Of a DNA stretch of 40,500 bases, positions 5,477 to 40,500 are shown one piece after another. The position numbers and the translations under genes are program-made. Positions within the stretch are counted from its first letter, which is position 1; the number at the start of each line of letters is the position of its first letter. The notes under the pieces were generated by a model. That model was not told the origin of the DNA. It saw nothing but the letters and a program-made list of their open reading frames with translations, and did not search any database. Source of the DNA: Escherichia phage P151; sequence record PP083182.1; one strand, 5' to 3'.

Positions 5477-5499
5477 TAATACGACTCACTATTGAGAGG
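5477..5499 (+). promoter_or_regulatory. Phage RNAP promoter phi6.5 (TAATACGACTCACTATTGAGAGG)
   Basis: Exact match to T7 consensus from -17 to -2; precedes gene 6.5. Confidence 0.85.
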
Positions 5500-26549: not shown

Positions 26550-27045
26550 AGAGGTAGCCTTATGTATTCCTTAATGGTCTACAAGGTCTCTTAGGGTCTC
26601 TCACGTAGTCTCACCGCTATGCTCCCTGCGTAGCACCTTATGATAGAGCCTCTGTGGTTAACCTTATGAGATACTTGATGTACCCCTTTAAGAATCCTAC
26701 AGAAAAATCTGAGTGGGTATCTCATAGTTCATACACACCGAGTTCCCCCCTATGGCCTCCTTCAGTTCCACCCAAATAGTGCCACCCCTATGGTAACTTA
26801 TGGCTTACTTAATGTCAATCCTTATGTGAGACATTGAGTTAACTTTGGGATGACCACTAGATATGGTGTGTGGGGGACCTTATGACCACTATATGTAGTC
26901 CTCTCTGTGTCCCTATCTGTAAGTGACCATTGAGTATCACCTTATGTCATCACCTTATGTCATCACCTTGCTAGCCTTATGTTATCACCTTATGACCATT
27001 CCTATCCTTATGTTAACCTTCAGTCAGTGCCTTATGTTTATCAGT
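26550..27045. repeat. Array of about 14 short CCTTATG-type repeats spanning the probable physical genome ends / terminal repeat (collapsed)
   Basis: Motif recurs at irregular spacing; embedded TCTCAC..., CTCTCTGTGTCCCTATCTGT and CCCCTATGG resemble the T7 terminal repeat, where the short repeat is CCTAAAG. Confidence 0.6.
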
Positions 27046-27178
27046 GACCAGTAGGCTTCGTCACAAAGGAGATTCATTATCTTACTCTGTTTATCAGTCT
27101 CTGAGTAATGAGAGAGACACAAGTAATATCGACTGAGTGCCTATAGTGCCTTAAAGATGGCTTAGAGTCAATGGCCTT

Positions 27179-27201
27179 TAATATGACTCACTATTGAGAG
27201 A
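27179..27201 (+). promoter_or_regulatory. Phage RNAP promoter phiOL (TAATATGACTCACTATTGAGAGA)
   Basis: 21/23 consensus match upstream of the host promoters, as T7 phiOL. Confidence 0.75.
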
Positions 27202-27303
27202 GAGAGGGAGAAACACTGCTAATGGTCATTCTCTCTTTATGTCTACTATAAGAGACTATAAGACAACTTAAAGAGAGGCTTTAAGATTCTTTAAGATTAA
27301 GTG

Positions 27304-27333
27304 TTGACATTGATAATGGCTCATGAGACTATA
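27304..27333 (+). promoter_or_regulatory. Host sigma70-type early promoter (A1-like)
   Basis: -35 TTGACA at 27304, 17-bp spacer, -10 region GACTAT/ACTATA; analogous to T7 A1 (TTGACT...GATACT). Confidence 0.6.
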
Positions 27334-27438
27334 TCAACCGTTGAGAGACACAACGCTATCAACTACCAGACAATACCGCGAGTTATCTGGTAAGGCTGAA
27401 GGGTCTCAAGTAGTCATCAACCAGACATATGAAAGTGG

Positions 27439-27467
27439 TTGACTCAACGGTAACAAAGCAGTAAGCT
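27439..27467 (+). promoter_or_regulatory. Host sigma70-type early promoter (A2/A3-like)
   Basis: -35 TTGACT, 17-bp spacer, -10 TAAGCT. Confidence 0.55.
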
Positions 27468-27530
27468 ACACAACGTCAACACAACGACTACCCTCTGAAA
27501 CAACATGAGGTGTCACGGTAAGAAAAGGTG

Positions 27531-27560
27531 TTGACAAGCAGTAAAGATAAGATGTAAACT
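27531..27560 (+). promoter_or_regulatory. Host sigma70-type early promoter (A2/A3-like)
   Basis: -35 TTGACA, 17-18 bp spacer, -10 GTAAAC/TAAACT. Confidence 0.5.
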
Positions 27561-27741
27561 GTACGGCATAACGTTCTTGTGAAGTCCCACACTGAAAGGG
27601 ACTCGGTGCTAACGAAACCTGCACTTAAAGTTCTTTAACAATATGGTCGTGTAATTCCCTTACTGCGAGACAGGTAGTCAAGAACTACGGGGATGACGTG
27701 AACGCACAAGCGTTTAACCAATGATAACGCCGACTGATAGC

Positions 27742-27795
27742 GATTAACTCAAGGGCGCACATTAAGTAACAACGTGTGCTCTTTATGATAATCAC
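27742..27795 (+). promoter_or_regulatory. RNase III-type processing hairpin (R0.3-like)
   Basis: GATTAACTCAAGGGCGCAC...GTGTGCTCTTTATGATAATCAC inverted repeat just upstream of the first early gene. Confidence 0.6.
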
Positions 27796-27821
27796 TAACA
27801 CACACATAATGAGGCACTATC

Positions 27822-28280
27822 ATGATTTACACTAATGAACCTGCAAACGTATTCTATGTACTGGTATCAGCGTTCCGCTCTAACCTCTGCGACGAAGTAA
27901 ATATGAGTCGTCATCGTCACATGGTTAACTCACTGCGTAATGCACCGCTTGAATACGGTAGCGTTGAGTCTACAGACTTGACTGGTTGTTATCGGGAGGC
28001 CATCGCAAGTGCACCGACTGAGGAACTGACCGTTCGTGTACGCTGTGCTAACAGAGCTCAAGCAATAGCGGTTGCACGTCTGGCGTGTAACGAGTTCGAC
28101 CAAGATTGTGTATTGGTCTATAAGTCACAGACGCACACGGCTGGCTTAGTGTACGCTCAAGGCATTACTGGCTATAAAGCTGAACGTCTGCCGGGTAGCT
28201 TCCAAGAAGTGCCTAAAGGCGCACCGCTTCAAGGTTGCTTCACGATTGATGAGTTCGGTCGCCGCTGGCAAGTACAGTAA
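27822..28280 (+). CDS. T3-type gene 0.3 protein: S-adenosylmethionine-degrading enzyme (SAMase/SAM lyase), anti-restriction (152 aa)
   Basis: Same length as T3 SAMase and, from memory, near-identical over MI-x-T-x-EPANVFYVLVSAFRSNLCDEVNMSRHRHMV...KGAPLQGCFTIDEFGRRWQVQ; not checked against a database. Confidence 0.7.
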   Translation: MIYTNEPANVFYVLVSAFRSNLCDEVNMSRHRHMVNSLRNAPLEYGSVESTDLTGCYREAIASAPTEELTVRVRCANRAQAIAVARLACNEFDQDCVLVYKSQTHTAGLVYAQGITGYKAERLPGSFQEVPKGAPLQGCFTIDEFGRRWQVQ

Positions 28281-28328
28281 GTGATAAACTCAAGGTCGCT
28301 CCATGCGAGTGGCCTTTATGATTATCAC
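28281..28328 (+). promoter_or_regulatory. RNase III-type processing hairpin
   Basis: GTGATAAACTCAAGGTCGCTC-CATGC-GAGTGGCCTTTATGATTATCAC; outer GTGATAA/TTATCAC and inner arms are inverted repeats. Confidence 0.65.
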
Positions 28329-28362
28329 TTTAACCTATACACACACTATGAGGTAACACACA

Positions 28363-28725
28363 ATGGCTATGTCTAACATGACTTATAACAACGTTTTCGA
28401 TCACGCTTACGAAATGCTGAAAGAAAATATCCGTTATGATGACATCCGTGACGCTGATGACCTGCAAGATGCAGTGCATATGGCGGCTGATAATGCTGTT
28501 CCGCACTATTACAGCGAAGTTTTCAGCATAATGGCAAGCGATGGCATTGACCTCGAGTTTGAGGACTCTGGTCTTATGCCGGACACCAAGGACGTAATTC
28601 GTATCCTGCAAGCGCGTATCTATGAGCAATTAACGATTGACCTCTGGGAGGACGCTGAGGACTTACTGAACGAGTATCTTGAGGAAGTCGAGGAGTCAGA
28701 AGACTACGAAGAGGATGGAGAGTAA
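28363..28725 (+). CDS. ocr: Ocr (T7 gp0.3), DNA-mimic inhibitor of type I restriction-modification (120 aa)
   Basis: [30 protein letters not shown]...HYY...[50 protein letters not shown] nearly identical to T7 Ocr; highly acidic. Confidence 0.93.
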
Positions 28726-28880
28726 TGGCTAACAATACCACGCAATATGGCCTGACCGCTCAAACTGTACTGTTTTATAGTGACATGGTACGCTGTGGCT
28801 TTGATTGGTTGCTCGCAATGGGACACCTTAAGGAACTGTACGAAAACAACAAGGCAATAGCCTTGGAGTCTGCTGAGTGA
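28725..28880 (+). CDS. gp0.4-like protein (51 aa; T7 gp0.4 inhibits FtsZ)
   Basis: Hand-translated: [51 protein letters not shown], resembling T7 gp0.4; ATG overlaps the ocr stop. Confidence 0.8.
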   Translation: MANNTTQYGLTAQTVLFYSDMVRCGFDWLLAMGHLKELYENNKAIALESAE

Positions 28881-28924
28881 TAGGCTCAAGGTCGCTCCTA
28901 GCGAGTGGCCTTCATGATTACCAC
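28877..28924 (+). promoter_or_regulatory. RNase III-type processing hairpin (R0.5-like)
   Basis: GTGATAGGCTCAAGGTCGCTC-CTAGC-GAGTGGCCTTCATGATTACCAC, near-duplicate of the hairpin at 28281..28328. Confidence 0.65.
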
Positions 28925-28948
28925 TTAACACGCTATAGGACTAATATC

Positions 28949-29149
28949 ATGAGTAAACTTCTGGCAACATCTAAAATCAAAGGCCAACACACTGTAACTC
29001 TGCGTGAGTACGAGCACGGTAAAATGGGGAGCACCTACGTTGTTCGGTACGGTAAACAAGTCACGCATTGGATGAACGAGGTTTTAGCGCAAGAAGAATA
29101 CCAAGCCTGCGTGAAGCACCAAGCAACATGTTCGGGCTGGAATGGCTGA
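28949..29149 (+). CDS. Hypothetical early protein (66 aa), gp0.5-like by position
   Basis: ATG after AGGA RBS immediately downstream of the RNase III hairpin; the ORF-track 28877 start would lie inside the hairpin. Confidence 0.5.
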   Translation: MSKLLATSKIKGQHTVTLREYEHGKMGSTYVVRYGKQVTHWMNEVLAQEEYQACVKHQATCSGWNG

Positions 29150-29182
29150 TAACGCTATTTGCACTCTATGAGGTAACACCAC

Positions 29183-29383
29183 ATGTTATATACACTTGTT
29201 GCACTCGTTTACACTCTAATCGCGCTGTACTTCCTTCGAGACTTCCGCAAGGGTCTCAAGGTACACAAAGCTAACTTCTCGCACCTAAAGTATGGCTTCC
29301 TGCCGCGCTTCACTGTCCGTGAACGCAATGGACGCTTTAAGGCTAACAAGGTGGGAATCTTTTACATCGCAACGCTCAAATAA
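29183..29383 (+). CDS. Hypothetical early membrane protein (66 aa), gp0.6-like by position
   Basis: GAGG RBS; hydrophobic N-terminal segment LYTLVALVYTLIALYFL. Confidence 0.5.
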   Translation: MLYTLVALVYTLIALYFLRDFRKGLKVHKANFSHLKYGFLPRFTVRERNGRFKANKVGIFYIATLK

Positions 29384-29417
29384 CATTAATCTTCTTTCTT
29401 AAATAGGACACAATCTA

Positions 29418-30515
29418 ATGAACTACACCGACATTCAGGCACGTCTGGCAATCATCAAGTCTCTTCCGATTAGCGACTTGGACAAGCGCCAGCCTCTTTT
29501 GGTCGAACTGGCTGCTGACATCGTGAACGGTGAAACATGTGACGGAAACGACACAAACGGGTCGCATTGTCTTGAGTATCACGACTGGTGGAACACCTTG
29601 GGCGCACTGATGCGTGATGCAGGTTTCCACATGTTAGGCAATGGTCACTTCAGTGCGGCCTACTCGCACGAATTGTTACCGGGTCGGGTCATTAAGGTTG
29701 GCTTTAAGAAAGAGGATTCAGGCGCTGCATACACTGCATTCTGTAGGATGCACCAAGGCCGAGCGGGTATCCCTAACGTCTATCACGTAGCACGTCATGC
29801 AGGTTGTTATACGGTCGTACTGGACCACTTAAAAAGCTGTGACGACGATAATGATGACCATGTGGCATACGCTGACCTCGCACGTTACTTTGTGGAGTCG
29901 GATTGCCATGATGCAAGCGACTTTGCACCGGGTGACTACGAGTTCATCGAAACGTGCAAGATGATTCGTGAATTCTTCAAAGGGATTGCATCTTTCGACA
30001 TGCACCGCGGGAACATTATGTTCGACGATAACGATGTTCCGTACATCACTGACCCGGTTAGTTTCTCACATGACCGTGAACGTGAGGACGGTTTGCCTCT
30101 GGACCCTGAAGAACTGCTGGCTGAGGTCGAGGCTGTAGCGCAAGAACGCATGATTGAACGTTGTCGCAACCGCAAGGCCAAGCGTGACCCTAATGGCACC
30201 TACTGGATGAACAAGAAGGCCAACATGAAACGCCGTAAGTGCAACCGTAAGTTACATGCTAAGGTGGCAGAACGTGACCGCTTACACTTTATGGCAATCC
30301 GCAGGGAACGCGGTGTGATTGAGCGCAACGAACGCCGTGCTGATATGCTCATGGGGTCGGCTTGGCATGACTTCTGGTTACGCAATGGTAACTCAACGAT
30401 CCGCAAGATTGACCAAGTGAACGGCCTTAAGTGGCAACTAGGGGACCACCTAGCAATACAAGCGGGTCTCCCTCTGAATATCGACAAGTTACTTGACGCT
30501 CAACTGATGGGCTGA
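29418..30515 (+). CDS. Ser/Thr protein kinase gp0.7 (host transcription shutoff), 365 aa
   Basis: LGNGHFSAAYSH-x-LLP-x-RVIKVGFKKEDSGAAYTAFCRM-x-QGR-x-GIPNVY and GIASFDMH-x-GNIMF...DVPYITDPVSFS match T7 gp0.7. Confidence 0.93.
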   Translation: MNYTDIQARLAIIKSLPISDLDKRQPLLVELAADIVNGETCDGNDTNGSHCLEYHDWWNTLGALMRDAGFHMLGNGHFSAAYSHELLPGRVIKVGFKKEDSGAAYTAFCRMHQGRAGIPNVYHVARHAGCYTVVLDHLKSCDDDNDDHVAYADLARYFVESDCHDASDFAPGDYEFIETCKMIREFFKGIASFDMHRGNIMFDDNDVPYITDPVSFSHDREREDGLPLDPEELLAEVEAVAQERMIERCRNRKAKRDPNGTYWMNKKANMKRRKCNRKLHAKVAERDRLHFMAIRRERGVIERNERRADMLMGSAWHDFWLRNGNSTIRKIDQVNGLKWQLGDHLAIQAGLPLNIDKLLDAQLMG

Positions 30516-30518
30516 TAA

Positions 30519-30566
30519 GGTGTATCTTCAAGGTCGGCACTGACTGCTGGCCTTTATAGATAAACT
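30519..30566 (+). promoter_or_regulatory. RNase III-type processing hairpin (R1-like)
   Basis: CTTCAAGGTCGGCAC-TGAC-TGCTGGCCTTTATAGATAAAC upstream of the RNAP gene. Confidence 0.6.
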
Positions 30567-30588
30567 TTCTTAACAACGTGAGGCAATA

Positions 30589-33285
30589 ATGACTAACGTA
30601 ATCAACGCACCAAAGAACGACTTCTCTGACATCGCTAACGCAATCCAGCCGTACAACATTCTGGCTGACCATTATGGCGCACAGCTTGCAGCTACGCAGC
30701 TTGAGTTGGAACACGAAGCGCACACCGAAGGCGAGAAGCGTTTCCTTAAGGCAATGGAACGTCAAATCAAAGCGGGTGAGTTTGGTGACAACGCAGTAGC
30801 TAAACCGCTCCTGTCATCTCTCGCACCAAAGTTTATCGAGGCGTGGAACACTTGGTTCACTGAAGTGGAGACGAAGCGTGGCAAGCGTCCAGTGGCCTAC
30901 CTAAAGGTGAGGGGGATTGAGCAAGGTGCAGATGGTAAGTATCAGCAAGTGCATCAAGAGGTTGCACCGGAAGCTGCCGCATTCATCACACTGAAAGTCA
31001 CACTGGCTTGTTTGACCAAAGAGGAATACACCAACCTACAATCGGTTGCCACTAAGATTGGTCGTAGCATCGAGGATGAGTTACGTTTCGGACGCATTCG
31101 TGACGAAGAAGCGAAACACTTTAAGAATCACGTACAGGAAGCACTTAACAAGCGCGTAGGCATCGTCTACAAGAAAGCATTCATGCAAGCTGTAGAAGGC
31201 AAGATGCTAGATGCTGGTCAACTGCAAACCAAGTGGACCACATGGACACCTGAAGAATCAATTCACGTTGGTGTGCGCATGTTGGAACTGCTCATCGGGT
31301 CTACTGGTCTCGTTGAGCTACACCGACCGTTTGCTGGTAACGTTGAGAAGGATGGAGAGTACATCCAGTTAACCGAGCAATACGTTGAACTGTTATCTAA
31401 ACGTGCTGGGGCACTGGCTGCAATCGCTCCAATGTACCAACCTTGCGTGGTCCCTCCGAAGCCTTGGACTTCTCCGGTAGGTGGTGGCTATTGGGCTGCT
31501 GGTCGCAAGCCTCTCTCTCTGGTTCGTACTGGTAGCAAGAAGGGCTTAGAGCGTTACAACGATGTGTATATGCCTGAAGTTTACAAGGCGGTGAACATCG
31601 CACAGAATACTCCTTGGAAGATTAACAAGAAGGTTCTGGCAGTGGTCAACGAGATTGTGAACTGGAAGCATTGCCCGGTTGACGATGTACCTGCTCTCGA
31701 ACGTGGTGAACTTCCGGCTAAACCTGAAGACATCGACACGAACGAAGCGTCACTCAAAGCGTGGAAGAAAGCGGCCTCCGCAATCTACCGCAAAGAGAAG
31801 GCACGAGTGTCACGCCGCATGAGCATGGAGTTCATGTTAGGTCAGGCCAATAAGTTCGCACAGTTCAAAGCTATCTGGTTCCCGATGAACATGGACTGGC
31901 GCGGTAGAGTGTACGCAGTCCCAATGTTTAACCCGCAAGGCAACGACATGACTAAAGGTCTGTTAACGCTCGCTAAAGGTAAACCAATCGGTGTTGATGG
32001 ATACTACTGGCTGAAGATTCACGGTGCAAACACTGCTGGTGTGGACAAAGTGGACTTTGCAGAACGCATCAAGTTCATTGAGGACAACCACGAGAACATC
32101 ATGAGCGTTGCGGCTGACCCGATTGCTAACACTTGGTGGGCCGAACAAGACTCTCCGTTCTGCTTCCTCGCGTTCTGCTTCGAGTATGCAGGAGTCCAGC
32201 ACCACGGGATGAACTACAACTGCTCTCTTCCGCTGGCGTTTGATGGTAGCTGCTCCGGTATTCAGCACTTCTCCGCAATGCTTCGTGATGAAATTGGTGG
32301 TCGCGCTGTTAACTTACTGCCGAGCAAGGAAGTCCAAGACATCTACCGCATCGTTGCCGAACGTGTGAACGAGATGCTCCGCGAAGCGGTAATCAACGGC
32401 ACTGATAACGAAGTGGAAACCGTGACAAACAAGGACACTGGTGAAATCACTGAGAAGCTCAAGCTGGGAACGAAAGAGTTAGCTGGTCAGTGGCTGGCCT
32501 ATGGTGTGACTCGCAAGGTAACTAAACGTTCTGTCATGACGTTGGCTTATGGTTCCAAAGAGTATGGCTTCCGTGACCAAGTTCTTGAGGACACCATTCA
32601 GCCAGCTATCGACGATGGCAAGGGATTGATGTTCACTCAACCGAACCAAGCGGCTGGCTATATGGCTAAACTGATTTGGAACGCTGTAACGGTGACTGTG
32701 GTCGCTGCGGTCGAAGCAATGAACTGGCTGAAGTCTGCTGCTAAACTGCTGGCTGCTGAAGTCAAGGACAAGAAGACTAAAGAGGTTCTCCGCAAGCGCT
32801 GCGCGGTACATTGGGTAACACCTGATGGCTTCCCTGTGTGGCAGGAGTATCGCAAGGCAGTACAGACTCGTTTGAACCTGATGTTCTTGGGTCAGATTCG
32901 TTTGCAGCCTACTGTGAATACCAACAAGGATAGCGGAATTGACGCTCGTAAGCAGGAGTCAGGCATCGCACCTAACTTTGTTCACTCAATGGACGGCAGC
33001 CACCTGAGAATGACTGTAGTGCGCTCCAATGAGGTCTACGGTGTGGAATCCTTCGCACTGATTCATGACTCATTTGGTACTATCCCCGCTGACGCTGGCA
33101 ACCTGTTTAAAGCAGTGCGTGAAACGATGGTCAACACTTACGAAGAAAACGATGTACTCGCAGACTTCTATGAGCAATTCGCTGACCAGTTGCACGAGTC
33201 GCAGCTTGACAAGATGCCTGAGATGCCAGCTAAAGGCGCTCTTGACCTGCAAGAAATCCTGAAGTCAGACTTTGCGTTTGCCTAA
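30589..33285 (+). CDS. Single-subunit DNA-dependent RNA polymerase gp1 (T7-type, 898 aa)
   Basis: KNDFSDI, PCVVPPKPWT, YMPEVYKA-x-NIAQNT-x-WKINKKVLAV, MNMDWRGRVYAV, PLAFDGSCSGIQHFSAML, TLAYGSKE-x-GFR, specificity-loop-like NTNKDS...KQESGIAPNFVHS, C-terminal ALIHDSF...FAFA; about 15 aa longer than T7 RNAP. Confidence 0.98.
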   Translation: MTNVINAPKNDFSDIANAIQPYNILADHYGAQLAATQLELEHEAHTEGEKRFLKAMERQIKAGEFGDNAVAKPLLSSLAPKFIEAWNTWFTEVETKRGKRPVAYLKVRGIEQGADGKYQQVHQEVAPEAAAFITLKVTLACLTKEEYTNLQSVATKIGRSIEDELRFGRIRDEEAKHFKNHVQEALNKRVGIVYKKAFMQAVEGKMLDAGQLQTKWTTWTPEESIHVGVRMLELLIGSTGLVELHRPFAGNVEKDGEYIQLTEQYVELLSKRAGALAAIAPMYQPCVVPPKPWTSPVGGGYWAAGRKPLSLVRTGSKKGLERYNDVYMPEVYKAVNIAQNTPWKINKKVLAVVNEIVNWKHCPVDDVPALERGELPAKPEDIDTNEASLKAWKKAASAIYRKEKARVSRRMSMEFMLGQANKFAQFKAIWFPMNMDWRGRVYAVPMFNPQGNDMTKGLLTLAKGKPIGVDGYYWLKIHGANTAGVDKVDFAERIKFIEDNHENIMSVAADPIANTWWAEQDSPFCFLAFCFEYAGVQHHGMNYNCSLPLAFDGSCSGIQHFSAMLRDEIGGRAVNLLPSKEVQDIYRIVAERVNEMLREAVINGTDNEVETVTNKDTGEITEKLKLGTKELAGQWLAYGVTRKVTKRSVMTLAYGSKEYGFRDQVLEDTIQPAIDDGKGLMFTQPNQAAGYMAKLIWNAVTVTVVAAVEAMNWLKSAAKLLAAEVKDKKTKEVLRKRCAVHWVTPDGFPVWQEYRKAVQTRLNLMFLGQIRLQPTVNTNKDSGIDARKQESGIAPNFVHSMDGSHLRMTVVRSNEVYGVESFALIHDSFGTIPADAGNLFKAVRETMVNTYEENDVLADFYEQFADQLHESQLDKMPEMPAKGALDLQEILKSDFAFA

Positions 33286-33292
33286 CGAAATC

Positions 33293-33315
33293 TAATACGA
33301 CTCACTATTGGGAGC
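33293..33315 (+). promoter_or_regulatory. Phage RNAP promoter phi1.1A (TAATACGACTCACTATTGGGAGC)
   Basis: Consensus promoter directly after the RNAP gene, followed by an AT-rich tract with ACTTTAAG repeats. Confidence 0.85.
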
Positions 33316-33375
33316 CTACGGGCTTCCTAAACTTTAAGATAACTTTAAGTTCTAACTCTAAGAGGAAACACAATC

Positions 33376-33648
33376 ATGTTTACTTTCATCACTTCATTGG
33401 CTGCTATCATCTCAACCGTACTTGCTGCAACCTACTACAACCGCTCAAGGGTATTCCTCGTTGAGTTAATCAAAGAGGAAAAGAAATCTCATGAACTCAA
33501 AGAGAGACTAGAAGATGTTCTGCGTGAGAAGCAAGAACTGGCTGGTCGTATACCGATGTTAGAGTGGGAACTCAGAGACGCAAGGGCATTTGAGAGTGAG
33601 CGCACTAAGGCACTCAAAGAGAGAGAGACTAGTAGTTGCTTGGCGTGA
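33376..33648 (+). CDS. Hypothetical coiled-coil protein (90 aa) between gene 1 and gene 1.1; no T7 counterpart (gene 1.05-like position)
   Basis: AGAGGA RBS; N-terminal hydrophobic segment then charged heptad-like KEEKKSHELKERLEDVLREKQELAGR; flanked by phage promoters. Confidence 0.55.
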   Translation: MFTFITSLAAIISTVLAATYYNRSRVFLVELIKEEKKSHELKERLEDVLREKQELAGRIPMLEWELRDARAFESERTKALKERETSSCLA

Positions 33649-33696
33649 GAACCGAGAACTAGCGGGTCGCATTGAGATTGCACGTAAGGTTGCAGA

Positions 33697-33719
33697 CAAT
33701 ACGACTCACTAGTGGGGGA
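33697..33719 (+). promoter_or_regulatory. Phage RNAP promoter phi1.1B (CAATACGACTCACTAGTGGGGGA)
   Basis: 20/23 consensus match. Confidence 0.7.
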
Positions 33720-33730
33720 AACACTGAAAG

Positions 33731-33850
33731 TTAAACTCAAGGTCATTAAACAAGCCGTGACGAATAGCTGTCAAACCAGCGAGTAATCCGTAGTAACATC
33801 ACACCGTCGAACCGGAAAGGATGCTTGATTAGTGGCCTTCATGATTAACT
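33731..33850 (+). promoter_or_regulatory. Extended RNase III-type region (R1.1-like): motif half-sites about 100 nt apart
   Basis: Left half TTAAACTCAAGGTCAT at 33731 and right half AGTGGCCTTCATGATTAAC at 33831 bracket about 85 nt of extra sequence. Confidence 0.45.
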
Positions 33851-33883
33851 GTCAACACATTAACTGCATAAGGAAACAACATT

Positions 33884-34036
33884 ATGCGTACCAACTTTGA
33901 ACCAACCACTAAGCGCAACAACGTAATCAACAATGAACATGGTGCTGAATGGCAGGAACGTAAAGACCGCATGAAGAAACGCCACAAAACAAAGCGTGGC
34001 AACTCTGAGAAACGCAACTGGAAGGAGGCACTCTAA
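33884..34036 (+). CDS. gp1.1-like basic protein (50 aa)
   Basis: Hand-translated: MRTNFEPTTKRNNVINNEHGAEWQERKDRMKKRHKTKRGNSEKRNWKEAL; basic, Lys/Arg-rich like T7 gp1.1; stop overlaps the gene 1.2 ATG. Confidence 0.7.
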   Translation: MRTNFEPTTKRNNVINNEHGAEWQERKDRMKKRHKTKRGNSEKRNWKEAL

Positions 34037-34293
34037 TGGGACGCTTATACAGTGGGAATCTTAGCGCATTCAAGGCCGCTGCCGGTCGAATCTTTAAGCT
34101 GGACTTAGTGGTCACATGTGATGAATGGTATGAAGCACATGTTCGTCTTGAGTGTATCAGGCTGCGCATAGAGGACCGGGGGGGTCGCCTTATCGACTCT
34201 ACTATTTGTAGTCATCATGACGAAGACGTTCTCTATAGCACTTGTACCAATTGGCTGAACCGTATGTATGACCAGTTGAAAGACTGGAAGTAA
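34036..34293 (+). CDS. gp1.2, inhibitor of host dGTP triphosphohydrolase (85 aa)
   Basis: Same length as T7 gp1.2; MGRLYSGNL-x-AFKAA, CIRLRIEDR, HHDEDVL and C-terminal MYDQLKDWK conserved. Confidence 0.9.
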   Translation: MGRLYSGNLSAFKAAAGRIFKLDLVVTCDEWYEAHVRLECIRLRIEDRGGRLIDSTICSHHDEDVLYSTCTNWLNRMYDQLKDWK

Positions 34294-34313
34294 TATGACT
34301 CACTATTGCGAGA
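34291..34313 (+). promoter_or_regulatory. Phage RNAP promoter phi1.3 (TAATATGACTCACTATTGCGAGA)
   Basis: Overlaps the gene 1.2 stop codon. Confidence 0.75.
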
Positions 34314-34314
34314 G

Positions 34315-34356
34315 GTAAACTCAAGGTCATCCGAAAGGTTGACCTTTGTGATTAAC
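34315..34356 (+). promoter_or_regulatory. RNase III-type processing hairpin (R1.3-like)
   Basis: AAACTCAAGGTCATCC-GAAA-GGTTGACCTTTGTGATTAAC upstream of the ligase gene. Confidence 0.65.
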
Positions 34357-34401
34357 TTTTGCTTAAACATTAACCAATAACACATACATAGGAGTTCCAT
34401 C

Positions 34402-35439
34402 ATGGAAATCACATTCAAGACTAACCCACACAAAGCTGTATCATTCGTTGAGTCTTCCGTTAATAAAGCCCTCGACAAAGCTGGATACCTGATTGCTGAC
34501 ATTAAATATGATGGCGTTCGTGGTAACATTGTAGTTGACAATACGGCTGACTCTGCGTGGCTCTCTCGTGTCTCTAAGGAGATTCCTGCTCTGTCACATC
34601 TCAACGGATACGACAGACGCTGGGAGATGCTCCTGAAGGATGACCGCTGTATCTTCCCTGATGGCTTCATGCTTGATGGTGAACTGATGGTAAAAGGCGT
34701 GGACTTTAACACAGGGTCTGGCTTACTGAGGACCAAGTGGCTCAAGGAGACAAACTATGTTTACTCCACCAGCGAGTGGTTCCATGATGAATGGAAGAAG
34801 AACAAACAGCAGTTTGAGTTAGCAGAAGACCGACTCAAGGTTGTTCTCTATGGTGTCATGCCGTTTGACTCTATGGTCTCCGGTGAGACCTACGAAGTGA
34901 TGAACCTACTGATGCGTGAGCACGTTAAGGCTATGCTCCCTGTTCTGCGAGAGCACTTCCCTGAAATCGAATGGGACATCTCTGAGAGCTATGAAGTCTA
35001 CGATATGGTAGAACTGAATGCCCTCTATGAGAAAGCCCGTGCCGATGGTCATGAAGGTCTGGTAGTTAAAGACCCGCTGGGATTCTATATGCGCGGTAAG
35101 AAGTCCGGCTACTGGAAGATGAAGCCTGAGTGTGAAGCTGATGGTGTCATCATTGGACTCAATTGGGGTACTCCGGGTCTGGCTAATGAAGGTAAAGTGA
35201 TTGGCTTCGAGGTTCTCTTGGAGTCCGGTCGTGTAGTCTCTGCCAACAACATTAGCCAAGCGTTGATGGATGAGTTTACTGCTGCCGTCAAACATGCTGA
35301 GTCTGTGGGTATGGGTATGCCGTACACTGGCTTCGCCTGTCAGGTTGCCTACATGGAGGAAACTCCTGATGGTTCTCTGCGTCACCCATCGTTCGTTATG
35401 TTCCGTGGTGTCGAGTCAGACCCAACGGTCAAGATGTAA
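34402..35439 (+). CDS. ATP-dependent DNA ligase gp1.3 (345 aa)
   Basis: IKYDGVRGNI (adenylation motif I, KxDG), FMLDGELMV, HEGLVVKDP, GKKSGYWKMKPE, EETPDGSLRHPSFVMFRG match T7 ligase. Confidence 0.96.
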   Translation: MEITFKTNPHKAVSFVESSVNKALDKAGYLIADIKYDGVRGNIVVDNTADSAWLSRVSKEIPALSHLNGYDRRWEMLLKDDRCIFPDGFMLDGELMVKGVDFNTGSGLLRTKWLKETNYVYSTSEWFHDEWKKNKQQFELAEDRLKVVLYGVMPFDSMVSGETYEVMNLLMREHVKAMLPVLREHFPEIEWDISESYEVYDMVELNALYEKARADGHEGLVVKDPLGFYMRGKKSGYWKMKPECEADGVIIGLNWGTPGLANEGKVIGFEVLLESGRVVSANNISQALMDEFTAAVKHAESVGMGMPYTGFACQVAYMEETPDGSLRHPSFVMFRGVESDPTVKM

Positions 35440-35452
35440 ATTAAAACTCAAC

Positions 35453-35480
35453 GGTCAGTCCTTAATGGGCTGGCCTTTTT
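35453..35480 (+). terminator. Early terminator TE-like (host RNAP terminator after the ligase gene)
   Basis: GGTCAGTCC-TTAAT-GGGCTGGCC stem-loop (two G-U pairs) followed by TTTTT; same location as T7 TE. Confidence 0.75.
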
Positions 35481-35486
35481 GCGTTT

Positions 35487-35509
35487 CTATACGACTCACT
35501 ATGGGAGGA
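35487..35509 (+). promoter_or_regulatory. Phage RNAP promoter (phi1.5-like), CTATACGACTCACTATGGGAGGA
   Basis: Core ACGACTCACTAT present; differs at -17, -16 and -1. Confidence 0.6.
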
Positions 35510-35517
35510 ACAACCTC

Positions 35518-35598
35518 ATGCTATTTCTAATCGTCGCTATCATTGCTGCCACCTTTGCTCTCGTTATCATTGATGACAACTGCTGGCCTGATTGTTAA
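35518..35598 (+). CDS. Small hydrophobic ORF (26 aa), gp1.4/1.5-like by position
   Basis: MLFLIVAIIAATFALVIIDDNCWPDC; GGGAGGA RBS; between two phage promoters. Short, so speculative. Confidence 0.35.
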   Translation: MLFLIVAIIAATFALVIIDDNCWPDC

Positions 35599-35617
35599 TA
35601 CGACTCACCTATGGAGG
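35596..35617 (+). promoter_or_regulatory. Phage RNAP promoter (phi1.6-like), TAATACGACTCACCTATGGAGG
   Basis: Consensus upstream half; one-base insertion before the initiating region. Confidence 0.55.
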
Positions 35618-35625
35618 ACACAACT

Positions 35626-35889
35626 ATGTTAAGACTTCACTTCAACAAATCTAATGGCATCTTCTCTGCTCGTGGCTCTGACCGTTCTACGGTTCTGGCC
35701 TCTGAGAAACATGCAGTCATCCCTAAAGTGCTTGGCTCGACCATTGAGTTAGCACCTCGTGTTCACGCTGTGATTACGACTGGCTTATATAAAGAAGCGA
35801 CCACTGGCTCCCGGCCTTTCATTCCGGTTCTCGTCACCCGTTTCCCTAAAGTCCGTCTGGTCATTGCGCGTATCAAGGAGGTGTTCTAA
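35626..35889 (+). CDS. gp1.6-like protein (87 aa)
   Basis: ATG after GGAGGA RBS; position as T7 gene 1.6. Confidence 0.6.
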   Translation: MLRLHFNKSNGIFSARGSDRSTVLASEKHAVIPKVLGSTIELAPRVHAVITTGLYKEATTGSRPFIPVLVTRFPKVRLVIARIKEVF

Positions 35890-36218
35890 TGGCACACTAC
35901 TGCGTAGACTGTCAGAACGACCACACCGAGTGTACCTGTCATGAGAACGTGCGCCAGGTTCCACCTAGCAAACCACAAGATATAGATGGTGTTCGGACTC
36001 CTAGCCACTATATGTTGTTTGATGACATTGAGGCTATCGAAGTGATTGCCCGGTCGATGACCCGTGAACAGTTCAAAGGGTACTGCTACGGGAACATCCT
36101 TAAGTATCGCCTACGTGCTGGTAAGAAATCTGAACTGGCATTCTTAGAGAAGGACATGGCGAAAGCTGGGTTCTATGGTGAACTGTATGAGAAACATAAG
36201 GACAAGTGCTATGCTTAA
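35889..36218 (+). CDS. gp1.7-like protein (109 aa), shorter than the 196-aa T7 nucleotide kinase
   Basis: Position after 1.6; Cys-rich N-terminus (CVDCQNDHTECTCH) and REQFKGYCYGNILKYRLRAGKK block. Confidence 0.55.
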   Translation: MAHYCVDCQNDHTECTCHENVRQVPPSKPQDIDGVRTPSHYMLFDDIEAIEVIARSMTREQFKGYCYGNILKYRLRAGKKSELAFLEKDMAKAGFYGELYEKHKDKCYA

Positions 36219-36298
36219 TGATGTGCTGTGCTTCGGATTAATCTGTGCTGGAGTAGGTGGATTACTCCGCTTAATGTATTGGGCTATAGAGGTGGAAT

Positions 36299-36397
36299 AT
36301 GGAAAAACCAAGTGAATGGTGTGAGCGTATGTTCGAAAAGACGGGCAACGCTGACTACCTCGAAATGTACAACCTGTGGAAAGGGAGAGAACAATGA
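36299..36397 (+). CDS. gp1.8-like small protein (32 aa)
   Basis: [32 protein letters not shown]; stop overlaps the gene 2 ATG. Confidence 0.45.
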
Positions 36398-36585
36398 GTA
36401 ATTTAAACAAAGGGTCACTGGTTAATAGTGATAAGAAGTTCTTCGCAACGGTAGAAGGCCAAGGCCAATCGTTCGAAGTCCCTGTGTTCGCTGTGTCTCT
36501 TGAAGAGGCCAACGAGTTAGCTGAGTGGCAGTATGTACCTGCTGGCTTCTCAGTGACACGCATCCGTCCAGACCGAAAGGTTTAA
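36394..36585 (+). CDS. gp2, inhibitor of host RNA polymerase (63 aa)
   Basis: MSN-x-N-x-GSL, KKF-x-ATVE, SFEVP and [11 protein letters not shown]-x-VTR-x-RP match T7 gp2. Confidence 0.92.
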
Positions 36586-36605
36586 TAGGACTCACTATTG
36601 GGAGA
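36583..36605 (+). promoter_or_regulatory. Phage RNAP promoter phi2.5 (TAATAGGACTCACTATTGGGAGA)
   Basis: Overlaps the gene 2 stop; followed by GGGAGA..TTTCCC hairpin. Confidence 0.8.
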
Positions 36606-36655
36606 CACATCGTTTCCCGCTTTTAACTTTAAGAAACCTCAAAAGGAGAAACATC

Positions 36656-37360
36656 ATGGCTTTCAATAAACGTAAAGTATTCACTTCCGCTCGTGGCGTT
36701 GCTGAACCTTACTGCTATCTGGCTAAACCAGACTTCGGTAGTGGTGACTTCAAGAACGAACGTGGTGTCTACAAAGTGTCACTGACTGTATCCAACGACG
36801 ACCCTCGCTGTCAGAAAATGATTGACGAGATTGTCGAAGCCCACGAAACGGATTATGCCGCACGTCTCGAAGAGTACGAAGCGAACCCGCCGAGAGCCGT
36901 AAAGGGTAAGAAACCGCTGAAGCCATACGTTGGCGACATGCCTTTCATGGATAACGAAGATGGAACCACTACGTTCAACTTCAAGTGCTATGGCTCGTTC
37001 ACTGACAAGAAGACTGGTGAGAACAAACCAATCGACTTGGCTATTGTGGACTCCAAAGGTAAGCGCATTCGTGGTGAGCGTCCGGCTATCTCTGGTGGCT
37101 CTGAACTGAAGATTAAATACACTCTGTTCCCTTATGGTTGGTCTGCTGTGGCAGGTGCTTCCGTTAAGCTGCAACTGGATTCCGTGATGCTGATTAAGCT
37201 GGTAGAGTTCGGTGGTGGTGAGGATGACTGGGCGGATGAAGTCGAAGAAGACGGGTACGAAGCTGATGAAGCACAGACCCGCAAGCCACAAAACGACTCT
37301 GGCTGGAATGAAGAACCAGAAGAAGAAGAGGACGATGAAGACGAAGATGGTGACTTCTAA
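36656..37360 (+). CDS. Single-stranded DNA-binding protein gp2.5 (234 aa)
   Basis: AEPY-x-Y-x-AKPD, DPRCQ-x-M-x-DEIVE, ANPP, GKKPLKPY, GGGEDDWADEVEE and acidic C-terminal tail ending DGDF, as T7 gp2.5. Confidence 0.96.
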   Translation: MAFNKRKVFTSARGVAEPYCYLAKPDFGSGDFKNERGVYKVSLTVSNDDPRCQKMIDEIVEAHETDYAARLEEYEANPPRAVKGKKPLKPYVGDMPFMDNEDGTTTFNFKCYGSFTDKKTGENKPIDLAIVDSKGKRIRGERPAISGGSELKIKYTLFPYGWSAVAGASVKLQLDSVMLIKLVEFGGGEDDWADEVEEDGYEADEAQTRKPQNDSGWNEEPEEEEDDEDEDGDF

Positions 37361-37806
37361 TGTCTAAGGGTTATGCAGGTCGAGGCACTCGTGTGGGTGC
37401 CTTTCGCTCTGGCTTGGAGGATAAGGTAAGCAAGCAACTCGAAGGGAAGAACATTAAGTTCGACTATGAGCGTTGGCGAGTACCCTATGTTATTCCTGCA
37501 AGCAACCATACCTATTGCCCTGACTTCCTGTTACCTAATGGCATCTTTGTGGAAACCAAAGGTCTGTGGGACAGTGAGGACCGCAAGAAACACTTGCTGA
37601 TTCGTGAACAGTACCCTGAACTTGATGTTCGCATCGTGTTCTCTTCAAGTCGCTCCAAGCTGTACAAAGGGTCTCCGACCAGTTACGGCGAGTGGTGCGA
37701 GAAGCATGGCATTCTGTTTGCTGACAAGTTAATTCCAGTTGATTGGCTGAAAGAGCCTTCTAAGGATGTTCCATTCGATAAATTTAAAGAGGTGAAGAAG
37801 AAATGA
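37360..37806 (+). CDS. Endonuclease I gp3 (Holliday junction resolvase, 148 aa)
   Basis: VGAFRSGLEDKVSKQLE, VPYVIPASNHTY-x-PDFLLPNGIFVETKGLW, KHLLIREQ-x-PELD-x-RIVFSSSR-x-KLYKGSPTSYGE match T7 gp3. Confidence 0.96.
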   Translation: MSKGYAGRGTRVGAFRSGLEDKVSKQLEGKNIKFDYERWRVPYVIPASNHTYCPDFLLPNGIFVETKGLWDSEDRKKHLLIREQYPELDVRIVFSSSRSKLYKGSPTSYGEWCEKHGILFADKLIPVDWLKEPSKDVPFDKFKEVKKK

Positions 37807-38237
37807 TTCTACATAACAAACTTGAGATAGTACCAACCGATTCCTGTGTAGAGTGGACAGGTGCGTACCACAAGAACGGTTATGGAGTAATCTCTTTGAA
37901 TAGGAAACTTGCTAGGGAGTTAGGGCTGGGGCGTGTTCAATTTGTACACAGGGCTTCTTACATCCAGAACGTTGGGTCTATACCCGAAGGGCTGGTTGTT
38001 CGCCACAAATGTGACAATAAGGCTTGCTTCAATCCCGCTCACCTTGAGGTGGGGACACATTATGATAATGCTTGTGATGCAGTTGAGCGCGGGCTATCTA
38101 AACGAAAACTTACAGATACGGAGGCGGAGTTCATACGTGGGTCAATCGAGTCTAACAGAAAGTTAGCGAAGCGATTTGGCGTAAGTTCTACAACCGTCTT
38201 CCACATTAAGAAAGGTAATAAGTGGAGGAATATATAA
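37803..38237 (+). CDS. HNH homing endonuclease (144 aa) inserted between genes 3 and 3.5
   Basis: VRHKCDNKACFNPAHLEVGTHYDN is an HNH-type motif (as seen from sequence, not profile-searched); C-terminal helix-turn-helix-like KLAKRFGVSSTTVFHIKKG; overlaps both neighbours' ends. Confidence 0.85.
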   Translation: MILHNKLEIVPTDSCVEWTGAYHKNGYGVISLNRKLARELGLGRVQFVHRASYIQNVGSIPEGLVVRHKCDNKACFNPAHLEVGTHYDNACDAVERGLSKRKLTDTEAEFIRGSIESNRKLAKRFGVSSTTVFHIKKGNKWRNI

Positions 38238-38692
38238 TGCCAAAGGTACAATTTAAACAGCGCAGTTCTACGGAAGCAATCTTTGTTCACTGTAGTGCAA
38301 CCAAACCATCAATGGATGTCGGTGTTCGTGAAATCAGTCAGTGGCATAAAGAACTCGGTTGGTTAGCAATTGGCTACCACTTTGTTATTCGTCGTGATGG
38401 AACCATTGAGGAAGGCCGTCCGGTAGATGTCGTTGGGTCTCACGTTAAGGACTGGAATAGTAAGTCAGTCGGTGTGTGCCTCGTAGGTGGCATTGATGAT
38501 AAAGGTAAGTTCGAAGCTAACTTTACGCCAGCACAGATGCACTCTCTTAAAGAGAAACTTGCAGACCTGCTGGACATGTATCCAGATGCAGAAATTAAAG
38601 CTCATCATGACGTTGCACCTAAAGCCTGTCCGTCCTTCAACTTGAGCCGCTGGCTGAAGACTGGAGAACTGGTCACAAGCGATTGGGGTTAA
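38237..38692 (+). CDS. Lysozyme gp3.5 (N-acetylmuramoyl-L-alanine amidase; RNAP-inhibitor homolog), 151 aa
   Basis: Start at MPKVQFKQR; AIFVHCSATKPS, VGVREI-x-QWHKE, GYHF-x-I-x-RDGT, VGVCLVGGIDDKGKF-x-ANFTPAQM, HH-x-VAPKACPSF match T7 lysozyme. Confidence 0.96.
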   Translation: MPKVQFKQRSSTEAIFVHCSATKPSMDVGVREISQWHKELGWLAIGYHFVIRRDGTIEEGRPVDVVGSHVKDWNSKSVGVCLVGGIDDKGKFEANFTPAQMHSLKEKLADLLDMYPDAEIKAHHDVAPKACPSFNLSRWLKTGELVTSDWG

Positions 38693-38711
38693 TAGAACTC
38701 ACTATGGGAGG
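38690..38711 (+). promoter_or_regulatory. Phage RNAP promoter phi3.8-like (TAATAGAACTCACTATGGGAGG)
   Basis: Overlaps the 3.5 stop; followed by GGGAGG..TCTCCC hairpin. Confidence 0.6.
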
Positions 38712-38762
38712 ACCGAAAGGTTTCTCCCTTTGTTCGCTAAAATTGTATAAGGAGTAACCACT

Positions 38763-40500
<1,738 letters not shown>

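Follow-up and report, generated by a model that had tools for sequence, protein, structure and literature searches.

The primary replication origin of bacteriophage T7 consists of two phage promoters (phi1.1A and phi1.1B) and an AT-rich region that together follow the RNA polymerase gene (gene 1). In phages T3 and T7M, this part of the genome is organized as a cassette in which a promoter, an AT-rich region, gene 1.05, a second promoter that overlaps the stop codon of that gene, an RNase III hairpin and gene 1.1 follow one another in that order; the T7M record places a 'primary origin of DNA replication' directly 3' of the first promoter, phi1.05. Gene 1.05 is common among T7-like phages, and the domain that defines its product (PF25755, Phage_T3_1_05, or 'T3 1.05') is present in 555 phage records. 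The T3-type protein is essentially this domain by itself (90 aa), while the long forms found in phages BA14, CECAV058, WW1, PYPS50, BP12A, SWJM-03 and JSS1 extend over 185-189 aa and comprise a membrane helix, a coiled coil and the domain, which scores 101.7 bits in BA14 (residues 106-176) and 101.9 bits in WW1. The papers found on gp1.05 list the protein as no more than hypothetical, and a search of PDB sequences with BA14 gp1.05 and with a shorter homologue described below (P0002) returned chance matches only (E 0.08 or worse). The RNase III site of the cassette, R1.1, is typically a compact hairpin, about 50 nt long and capped by a small apical loop, in which the two conserved halves lie 7-8 nt apart in BA14, T7M, BP12A, SWJM-03 and metagenome relatives.

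Escherichia phage P151 (PP083182.1; 40,500 nt, hereafter 'the window') is a Berlinvirus-like relative of T7, and positions 33293-33883 of its genome, which separate the RNA polymerase gene from gene 1.1, constitute a known gene 1.05 cassette of the T3/BA14 type. Its elements (phi1.05, AT-rich leader, gene 1.05, phi1.1, R1.1 and gene 1.1; Table 1) are arranged as in the annotated BA14 and T7M records, and alignment with these T3/T7-type regions demonstrated that the cassette is collinear with the annotated gene 1.05 arrangement. All of the features named in a preliminary description of the interval were recovered from the window at the positions given there. We consider it probable that the interval represents a gene 1.05 cassette in which the coding part has decayed and the cis-acting parts have remained intact, and of which the history is legible from its relatives.

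Table 1. Features of the gene 1.05 interval and its flanks in Escherichia phage P151.
Feature	Position	Strand	Basis
Gene 1, T7-type RNA polymerase, 898 aa	30589..33285	+	ORF list; relatives annotate RNA polymerase
phi1.05 phage promoter (TAATACGACTCACTATTGGGAGC)	33293..33315	+	Zero-mismatch consensus match 33294-33312; aligns with BA14 phi1.05
Predicted 5' stem-loop of phi1.05 transcript, GGGAGCC-UACG-GGCUUCC	33310..33327	+	Read from sequence
AT-rich translation leader, three AACTYTAAG motifs (33330, 33341, 33354)	33328..33375	+	Motif count, GC
Dispensable cassette (gene 1.05, phi1.1, R1.1)	33371..33878	+	Flanked by similar ribosome-binding leaders 33353-33383, 33861-33891
Truncated gene 1.05, 90-aa ORF	33376..33648	+	ORF list; BLASTP to BA14 gp1.05
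Repeat copy 1 (…SHELKERLEDVLREKQELAGRI)	33488..33551	+	Maps to BA14 codons ~38-59 inside collinear match 33376-33571
Repeat copy 2 (…KALKER then LVVAWRENRELAGRI after 4-nt removal)	33605..33672	+	Second match to BA14/PYPS50 codons 39/42-59
(AG)5 tract, frameshift site	33618..33627	+	Alignment with L007, L008, L009
Deletion junction	33655..33672	+	Overlap of blastn matches to codons 42-59 and long-form codons 167-186
gp1.05 C-terminal relic (AGRIEIARKVADNTTH*)	33662..33712	+	+1 frame; stop codon inside phi1.1
phi1.1 phage promoter	33697..33719	+	Zero-mismatch consensus match 33698-33716; aligns with BA14, T7M phi1.1
R1.1 RNase III-type hairpin, extended form	33726..33853	+	Aligned with T7M 'RNAse III recognition site R1.1'; folds
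Apical-loop insertion in R1.1, 85 nt	33747..33831	+	Versus 7-8 nt in canonical hairpins
Gene 1.1, 50 aa	33884..34036	+	PF08200 Phage_1_1, E 1.8e-11; phrog_2490

Searched with its own promoter consensus, the window contains 15 mismatch-free sites (0.04 expected), among them the two promoters that, as had been noted, surround the 90-aa ORF; the annotation of BA14 and T7M identifies these as phi1.05 and phi1.1, and not as the phi1.1A and phi1.1B of T7 for which they had been taken. The promoter, the 5' hairpin and the AACTTTAAG leader are kept in all relatives, even in those that are without gene 1.05, and these elements are not 'remodelled' as had been proposed. The predicted stem-loop at the 5' end of the phi1.05 transcript, which presumably resembles the hairpin in the T7 phi10 leader, differs among relatives either in its loop or in both of its arms (...CCTTAGGG... 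in the related contig L007, GGGAGACCCTTGGGGTTTCC in BA14). The AT-rich tract that follows the first promoter is real (GC 0.27 at 33330-33389), holds three of the nine AACTYTAAG motifs of the window (whole-window expectation 0.78), and includes a Shine-Dalgarno sequence, AAGAGGA, at 33360-33366. As in the primary origin of T7, a phage promoter and then an AT-rich tract stand right after gene 1, and the tract is a candidate replication origin solely by its position, which matches the T7M annotation. The promoters would be expected to fire, and transcription from phi1.05 across the tract may prime replication as in T7 and T3.

The 90-aa ORF, the product of which is identical to NCBI entry WVW36888.1 of Escherichia phage P151, encodes a membrane helix (aa 1-21; Kyte-Doolittle 19-residue maximum of 1.87 at residues 1-19), a coiled-coil helix and seven out-of-frame residues (ETSSCLA). 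A BLASTP comparison aligned it with residues 1-65 of BA14 gp1.05 (50/65 identities, 77%; E 3e-34), that is, with the membrane helix and coiled coil that form the N-terminal part of the Berlinvirus long forms. PF25755 is absent from the ORF at the gathering score of 27 bits; the ORF displays no match of any kind in Pfam or PHROG, and the peptide of the +1 frame none in PHROG. Relative to a full-length gene of 185-189 codons with the domain in frame, roughly 113 codons are gone and the tail stands in another frame, such that the stop codon inside phi1.1 is reached in P151 only in the +1 frame.

The coding region contains a true internal duplication, as the preliminary description had suspected from a 27-mer (33522-33548) that recurs at 33643-33669 with 23/27 identities. 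The full repeat is considerably larger, with 51 of 64 positions identical and a single 4-nt gap between the copies, and its best ungapped score (21) was reached by none of 500 dinucleotide shuffles (maximum 14) and by none of 500 codon shuffles (maximum 16). Mapping of the segments by blastn placed 33376-33571 on BA14 codons 1-66, 33589-33616 on BP12A codons 72-81 (93%) and 33611/22-33672 on codons 39/42-59 for a second time, so that both copies correspond to codons ~39-59 of the coiled coil. Because copy 2 falls on codons 39-59 and not on codons 75-92, its orthology to the second coiled-coil stretch of BA14 (ELIERLRAEAVEYRKEL) was rejected. A long form with a coiled coil of the PMLEWELRDARAFESERTK type was looked for, including in scans of IMG/VR and of JGI metagenomes, and none was found.

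Immediately beyond the second copy, coiled-coil-like sequence (…GAACTAGC) gives way to the C-terminal end of PF25755 (GCGGGTCGCATT…), and the stretches that encode ELAGRI and DVAGRI are microhomologous at this junction (in the part that encodes AGRI). Positions 33655-33711 are 96.5% identical to BA14 codons 167-186 by blastn, and what remains of the domain in P151 is its last 16 codons, out of frame. The +1 frame had been reported to encode a further stretch, and an ORF at 33590..33712 does read ...WRENRELAGRIEIARKVADNTTH*; since a C-terminal GRIE motif also terminates the domain in T7M and in KP32, the +1-frame tail of P151 can be identified as a relic of the domain.

The suggestion that the two frames had once formed a single gene was borne out by related phage contigs, in which an in-frame 110-aa homologue carries the same repeat. 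The frames of P151 part at the AG tract, which reads (AG)3 in the in-frame alleles L007 and L008 (110 aa), (AG)4 in L009 (84 aa) and (AG)5 in P151 (90 aa); removal of 4 nt at the P151 tract yields an ORF of 110 aa whose end lies in the phi1.1 promoter. The architecture of the DNA is identical to that of the short form, in P151 without its one-frame reading. The region of the P151 ORF is identical to L007 at 248 of 278 positions and to L009 at 270 of 279. In-frame short proteins are represented by P0002 (three contigs) and P0004 (another contig, of 39.5 kb); in all, the short form is known from only five or six sequences, and its in-frame version from three or four metagenome contigs. Scans of IMG/VR and of JGI metagenomes for the deletion junction, for the context of the AG tract and for the LEWELRD segment recovered no further short-form alleles, and an IMG/VR scan for related loci with the 90-aa ORF returned nothing, which indicates that the short form is rare in those collections. 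The in-frame homologue was modelled as a single helix from residue 2 to residue 108 (pLDDT 93). Between P151 and L007, codons 31-83 differ by four synonymous changes and one non-synonymous change (dN/dS 0.06) and the tail by none and three, respectively, while the two frameshifted alleles (P151 and L009) differ by one synonymous and six non-synonymous changes; all of these are very small counts.

Several other accounts of the ORF and of its two frames can be weighed against these observations. The preliminary description had treated the ORF as an extra coiled-coil gene, in effect an independent gene inserted between the promoters and unrelated to known genes; T7 is not known to carry a gene there, and the ORF is without a Pfam or PHROG match of its own, but its identity to the BA14 N-terminus over 65 residues, together with the collinearity of its start, leader and end with gene 1.05 of the seven long-form relatives and the mapping of its segments, refutes that account, to which we assign virtually no probability, and establishes the ORF as what remains of the N-terminal part of gene 1.05. 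It is unlikely, although considerably less so, that the frameshift is an artefact of sequencing or assembly and that the real gene possesses (AG)3 (110 aa) or (AG)6 (112 aa) and encodes an intact short gp1.05. Such an error would explain why the removal of 4 nt restores the exact 110-aa architecture of P0002 and P0004, and the P151 record is an untrimmed, unpolished assembler contig with a 127-nt terminal k-mer overlap; against it, short-read assemblies do not usually err by 4 nt in a dinucleotide run of 10 nt, and an independent assembly of a near-identical allele (L009, SRR19631114) displays (AG)4 at the same tract, so that either the tract is polymorphic in nature or two assemblies erred differently at one spot. 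We infer that the frameshift in P151 is biological.

A biological frameshift might in principle be put to use. If the AG tract were a contingency switch that reversibly adds and removes a 27-residue C-terminal tail, with both states used, then the occurrence of three tract lengths among five or six closely related alleles, the fact that repeat copy 1 has an identical (AG)3 of unvarying length and the apparent constraint on the N-terminal 83 codons would all be accommodated; the tract is nevertheless short for high-frequency slippage, neutral drift after a first inactivating slip explains (AG)4 and then (AG)5 equally well, the frameshifted alleles differ mainly by non-synonymous changes, and the entire cassette is dispensable in relatives, all of which render this very unlikely. 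Fusion of the two frames into a P151 protein of about 111 aa, by programmed ribosomal frameshifting or by transcriptional slippage, appears extremely improbable: T7-group phages do employ frameshifting elsewhere (for example, in gene 10) and the downstream frame contains no stop codon between 33590 and the conserved one in phi1.1, but in the overlap (33590-33648) neither a known +1 slippery motif nor a stop or rare codon that could act as a stimulator can be recognised, and the relationship between the frames is not conserved, since L009 would need the opposite shift and L007, L008 and P0004 none. The domain loss and the frameshift of P151 gene 1.05 probably represent ordinary decay of an accessory gene. 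That its 90-aa product has little or no function we do no more than infer, since the product retains a part that looks constrained.

Downstream of phi1.1, the conserved lower stem and internal-loop sequence of R1.1 were identified by alignment with T7M and BA14, in the form of two halves, GAAAGTTAAACTCAAGGTCAT (33726-33746) and GTGGCCTTCATGATTAACTGTC (33832-33853), that are separated in P151 by 85 nt, in agreement with the expanded RNase III region noted previously; the compact form of the hairpin is not found here. Structure prediction yielded an extended, branched fold in which the lower stem and the internal loop are kept, with an unremarkable folding z-score (-0.93 in P151, -2.38 in PYPS50). 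The extended hairpin exists as two sequence types only, between which two pairs change on both sides, and these are too few to claim a conserved structure. The insertion is present in only eight phage records; no second copy was found in the window and no match in E. coli genomes, a search of IMG/VR returned one contig, and a scan of GTDB genomes returned a single match of 20 nt, due to chance and located in an unrelated bacterial gene. Rfam assigned no family to 33200-34100 at E values up to 5 (a chance hit, STnc630, reached 16.9 bits where the gathering score is 55). RNase III would be expected to cut R1.1, parting the 1.05 message from that of 1.1-1.3 and leaving a stabilising 3' hairpin. 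The insertion could turn a site that is cut once into a longer duplex cut on both strands, freeing a structured phage RNA of about 100 nt, just as the AG tract could switch the C-terminal tail of this membrane-anchored coiled-coil protein on and off, in a T7-like phage that is strictly lytic; the chance that at least one of these two possibilities, slippage switch or released RNA, is true appears small.

Comparison with other close relatives, from which it is absent, demonstrated at the level of the genomes that the gene 1.05 cassette is dispensable. Ship_A7 and P1338 have the phi1.05 leader joined directly to gene 1.1 (...TAACTCTAAGAGGAAACA then ACATTATG), with the junction in the repeated ribosome-binding leader, while in P694, pO103 and RN5i1 the match to the query is confined to its first 121 nt. 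The ancestry of the interval is likewise seen to be mosaic when its parts are aligned separately: the flanks are nearly identical to those of Yersinia phage WW1 (298/300 over the last 300 nt of gene 1, 127/128 on the other side), and the P151 ORF, close to that of L009, is unrelated to the WW1 allele. A history consistent with these relationships would begin with an ancestral protein of 185-189 aa, with membrane helix, coiled coil and PF25755 domain, in which recombination within the coiled-coil region would have produced a mosaic with the segment of codons ~39-59 present twice; a deletion between the ELAGRI and DVAGRI microhomologies would then have removed the remaining coiled coil and the whole domain, leaving a membrane-anchored single helix of 110 aa that still ended in the phi1.1 promoter, after which a slipped-strand expansion from (AG)3 to (AG)5 would have shifted the frame and created the 90-aa ORF and its orphan +1-frame tail. 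Up to this point the steps hold as relationships among the sequences. Finally, the allele may have been exchanged, by way of conserved promoter-proximal sequences, into a WW1-like backbone that supplied the R1.1 hairpin with its 85-nt insertion; the order in which duplication, deletion and allele exchange took place is presumably as given.

It follows for annotation that the 'hypothetical protein' WVW36888.1 of P151 should be described as a truncated, frameshifted gene 1.05, and that the orphan +1-frame ORF should not be annotated as a gene. More generally, this lineage provides a natural allelic series of gene 1.05 (full length, domain-less, frameshifted and absent) which shows that gp1.05 is dispensable and that the module of membrane helix and coiled coil can be retained when the domain is lost, and which represents ready material for testing the role of the protein. 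The interval also illustrates the mosaicism of T7-like phages, through exchange via conserved promoter and leader sequences, deletion at coding microhomology, and slippage in a dinucleotide run.

Set beside the systems that it most resembles, the P151 locus shares with contingency loci a coding dinucleotide tract in which the number of units varies between close relatives and determines the frame that is read; it differs in that the tract is short (3-5 units) and lies in an accessory gene of a lytic phage. Compared with the primary origin of T7, P151 has one promoter ahead of the AT-rich tract where T7 has two, and in P151 the same tract also serves as the leader from which gene 1.05 is translated; in relatives without the cassette it serves gene 1.1 in this way. 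The lower stem, asymmetric internal loop, flanking sequence and location of R1.1 are common to P151 and the T7 group, whereas the apical loop of P151 comprises 85 nt predicted to fold into an extended, branched upper part. The P151 product corresponds to the N-terminal extension without the domain, and is thus complementary to the T3-type protein; that both measure 90 aa is a coincidence. With BA14 gp1.05 (AS7_0005/ACF15732.1) and the other Berlinvirus long forms, P151 gene 1.05 shares its position, phi1.05 leader, start codon, N-terminal membrane helix, first coiled-coil segment, last 16 codons and a stop in phi1.1, and it is distinguished from them by the loss of the codons that include all of PF25755, by the doubled segment of codons 39-59, and by the (AG)5 frameshift.

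The 90-aa open reading frame (ORF) between the two phage promoters is present as described, and corresponds exactly to NCBI protein WVW36888.1 of Escherichia phage P151. It had been taken for an extra gene, and is instead a decayed allele of a known accessory gene, gene 1.05, inside a known cassette (gene 1.05, promoter phi1.1 and the RNase III hairpin R1.1). In the Berlinvirus relatives BA14, CECAV058, WW1, PYPS50, BP12A, SWJM-03 and JSS1, the gene product (gp1.05) is 185-189 aa long and comprises an N-terminal hydrophobic helix, a coiled coil of at least three divergent allele types, and a well-conserved C-terminal domain (Pfam PF25755, 'Phage_T3_1_05'; 101.7 bits at residues 106-176 of BA14 gp1.05); it ends in ...KKDVAGRIEIARKVADNTTH*, with its stop codon within phi1.1. 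A tblastn query with BA14 gp1.05 matched 555 phage records, the weakest matches spanning little beyond the domain. The window ORF is 77% identical to BA14 gp1.05 residues 1-65 (E 3e-34), displays no PF25755 profile match, and lacks about 113 codons of the long form. Neither the literature nor a PDB sequence search yielded a function for gp1.05, and the loss is nameable only as that of 'the conserved domain'.

The continuation in the +1 frame suggested by the preliminary description was also found, as an ORF whose tail, AGRIEIARKVADNTTH, aligns with long-form codons 167-186; the GRIE motif at the domain end recurs in T7M (...CGRIERTYS*) and KP32 (...VGRIEFRHGKI*). The tail is therefore what remains of the PF25755 domain, and the short form arose by deletion. 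The 27-nt repeat recurs with 23 of 27 identities, as claimed, and belongs to a longer repeat than was reported (51 of 64 positions identical, with a single 4-nt gap), the score of which (21) exceeded the maxima of 14 and 16 reached in 500 dinucleotide and 500 codon shuffles, respectively (0 of 500 in either). Sensitive blastn of the window against seven long-form genes mapped the second copy again to codons that the first had already matched, thus bearing out a real duplication of the LKERLED.WREKQELAGRI-coding segment. The coiled-coil and tail matches overlap at 33655-33672, where GAACTAGCGGGTCGCATT switches from coiled-coil-like to tail-like sequence; the long-form stretches GAACTAGCTGGTCGAATC (ELAGRI) and GATGTAGCGGGTCGCATT (DVAGRI) share 13 of 18 positions, and may plausibly have provided microhomology for the deletion.

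Features of the gene 1.05 cassette and its borders in the window
Feature	Coordinates	Match or property
First promoter	33294-33312	0 mismatches to the genome's own consensus
AT-rich tract	33330-33389	27% G+C
Upstream ribosome-binding leader	33353-33383	
90-aa ORF (+)	33376..33648	
Segment 1	33376-33571	BA14 codons 1-66, 80% identity
Repeat copy 1	33488-33551	
Segment 2	33589-33616	BP12A codons 72-81, 93% identity
+1-frame ORF	33590..33712	...WRENRELAGRIEIARKVADNTTH*
Repeat copy 2	33605-33672	
Segment 3	33611/33622-33672	PYPS50/BA14 codons 39/42-59, second time, 76-78% identity
AG tract	33618-33627	(AG)5
Segment 4	33655-33711	long-form codons 167-186, 96.5% identity
Second promoter	33698-33716	0 mismatches to the genome's own consensus
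R1.1 hairpin	33726..33853	
Insertion in R1.1	33747-33831	85 nt
Downstream ribosome-binding leader	33861-33891	

Among 5.8 billion predicted proteins, a homologue search picked out two clusters. One protein of 110 aa (P0002), which reads ...FESERTKALKERLVAAWRENQELEGRIEIARKVADNTTH* and is encoded by three Logan contigs (two of them L007 and L008), has the duplication and deletion architecture of the window, but in one frame that ends in phi1.1; a second in-frame 110-aa allele (P0004) derives from a 39.5-kb contig, and an 84-aa protein (P0001, contig L009) is truncated at the same site as the window ORF. These in-frame homologues bear out the frameshift remnant that had been suspected. In the DNA alignment, the tract that follows CTCAA is (AG)3 in L007 and L008, (AG)4 in L009 and (AG)5 in the window, and this difference in length is the sole cause of the frame break: deletion of 4 nt from the window, or of 2 nt from L009, restores the 110-aa ORF. 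The main rival explanation, that the AG tract of the window reflects a sequencing error, is rather improbable, set beside a contig that carries its own frame break at that tract. An identical (AG)3 in the first repeat copy is of constant length in every sequence aligned, and a frameshift there would cost most of the protein.

Biological decay is the best explanation and a likely one: a deletion would have removed the PF25755 region of gene 1.05, and slippage at the AG run would then have shifted the frame. Neither a functional slippage switch nor recoding is likely. Between the window and L007, codons 31-83 contain 4 synonymous and 1 non-synonymous substitutions (dN/dS 0.06) and tail codons 84-110 contain 0 and 3; between the window and L009, both frameshifted, the whole gene contains 1 and 6 (dN/dS 1.8). 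These counts are small; the pattern fits a helix under constraint, a tail under little constraint, and constraint that was relaxed once the frame had shifted, but proves none of these. The in-frame short form, modelled from a single sequence, is an unbroken helix from residue 2 to residue 108 (mean pLDDT 93), and the first 19 residues of the window ORF have a Kyte-Doolittle mean of 1.87; the predicted product is probably a helix anchored in the membrane by a single pass.

The RNase III region is indeed expanded, the conserved halves of R1.1 being 85 nt apart, versus 7-8 nt in canonical relatives. The predicted fold of BA14 R1.1 is a compact hairpin closed by a 4-nt loop (-18.1 kcal/mol, z = -2.8); that of the window keeps the lower stem and internal loop intact, and the apical part is replaced by the insertion, which extends the stem and branches. 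Only eight Berlinvirus records share the insertion (WW1, CECAV058, SPLA4, four PYPS50-type records and JSS1), in two sequence types, both of which maintain pairing at the base of the extension, but through different sequences; two pairs are changed on both sides between the types, too little for a claim of covariation. It matches no Rfam family, is not repeated elsewhere in the P151 genome and was not found in E. coli genomes; the single bacterial-genome match was a chance 20-mer. In L009, a near-identical 1.05 allele adjoins a canonical R1.1 hairpin, so the decay of gene 1.05 and the insertion are independent.

The phi1.05 leader is joined directly to gene 1.1 (...TAACTCTAAGAGGAAACA followed by ACATTATG) in Shigella phage A7 and Escherichia phage P1338, and in P694, pO103 and RN5i1 the match to the query likewise stops after its first 121 nt. 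The cassette-less junction falls within the similar ribosome-binding leaders by which the cassette is flanked in the window; the whole block of gene 1.05, phi1.1 and R1.1 is therefore dispensable, and the phi1.05 promoter and AT-rich leader are retained in all of these relatives. The gene 1.1 allele of P1338 (L006, 1327-1458) is different from, and shorter than, that of phage A7 (L005, 1328-1477), encoding 43 aa (MRNLEKMTKRSNRNAHDF...), another sign of allele shuffling at the leader/gene 1.1 junction.

P151 is a mosaic. It agrees with WW1 at 298/300 positions at the end of gene 1, 127/128 in the R1.1 hairpin and 177/183 in gene 1.1; its ORF is identical to L009 at 270/279 positions, and has only the first 51 nt in common with the WW1 gene 1.05 allele. 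The points of exchange fall at the conserved promoter/leader and tail/promoter segments. A stretch of ~90 nt (33655-33745: gp1.05 tail, phi1.1 and R1.1 5' half) is near-invariant among the phages compared, whereas their gene 1.05 coiled-coil regions are only ~80% identical or unalignable; it coincides with apparent recombination breakpoints.

Judged by its alignments, P151 is a T7-like, Berlinvirus-like phage: window 27000-40500 is 94% identical to phage P483 across 86% of its length, and 1-25000 is 95% identical to Yersinia phage WW1 across 89%. The record is a circular permutation in which gene 1 lies at 30.6 kb. Its ends are identical (1-127 and 40374-40500; non-redundant length 40,373 nt), as is typical when an assembler run at k=127 leaves untrimmed the contig of a phage genome that is circularly permuted or concatemeric; neither the true genome ends nor the terminal repeats are represented in it. 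The RNA polymerase ORF (30589-33285) encodes 898 aa, as in WW1 (2,697 nt), and is 15 residues longer than the 883 aa of BA14, CECAV058, PYPS50, Ship_A7 and L007. A second (AG)5 run (27197-27206) shares its first two bases with the end of a promoter-like site, AATATGACTCACTATTGAG (2 mismatches versus consensus); both lie within 27180-27206, probably near the left genome end.

Both flanking promoters and the AT-rich tract were confirmed, and promoter-consensus sites number 15 in the window (0.04 expected). The annotated order in BA14 is phi1.05, gene 1.05, phi1.1, gene 1.1, and that in the T3-like T7M is phi1.05, 'primary origin of DNA replication', gene 1.05, phi1.1, 'RNAse III recognition site R1.1', gene 1.1; the window aligns with both element by element, which identifies its two promoters as phi1.05 and phi1.1. 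The architecture is accordingly of the known T3/BA14 type, rather than a reworked T7 phi1.1A/B region, and the AT-rich tract, conserved among relatives, is not remodelled; by correspondence with the T7M annotation, it is a candidate origin. In T3-type phages, the PF25755 domain makes up almost the entire gp1.05. AACTYTAAG motifs occur nine times in the window (0.78 expected), three of them inside the tract, and AACTTTAAG also lies ~40-50 nt after the promoters at 5478 and 36584. The T7 gene 10 leader exemplifies a late-gene form consisting of a 5' hairpin, an TTAACTTTA enhancer-like element and a Shine-Dalgarno sequence; the window resembles it, with GGGAGCC-UACG-GGCUUCC followed by AACTTTAAG motifs and then AAGAGGA.
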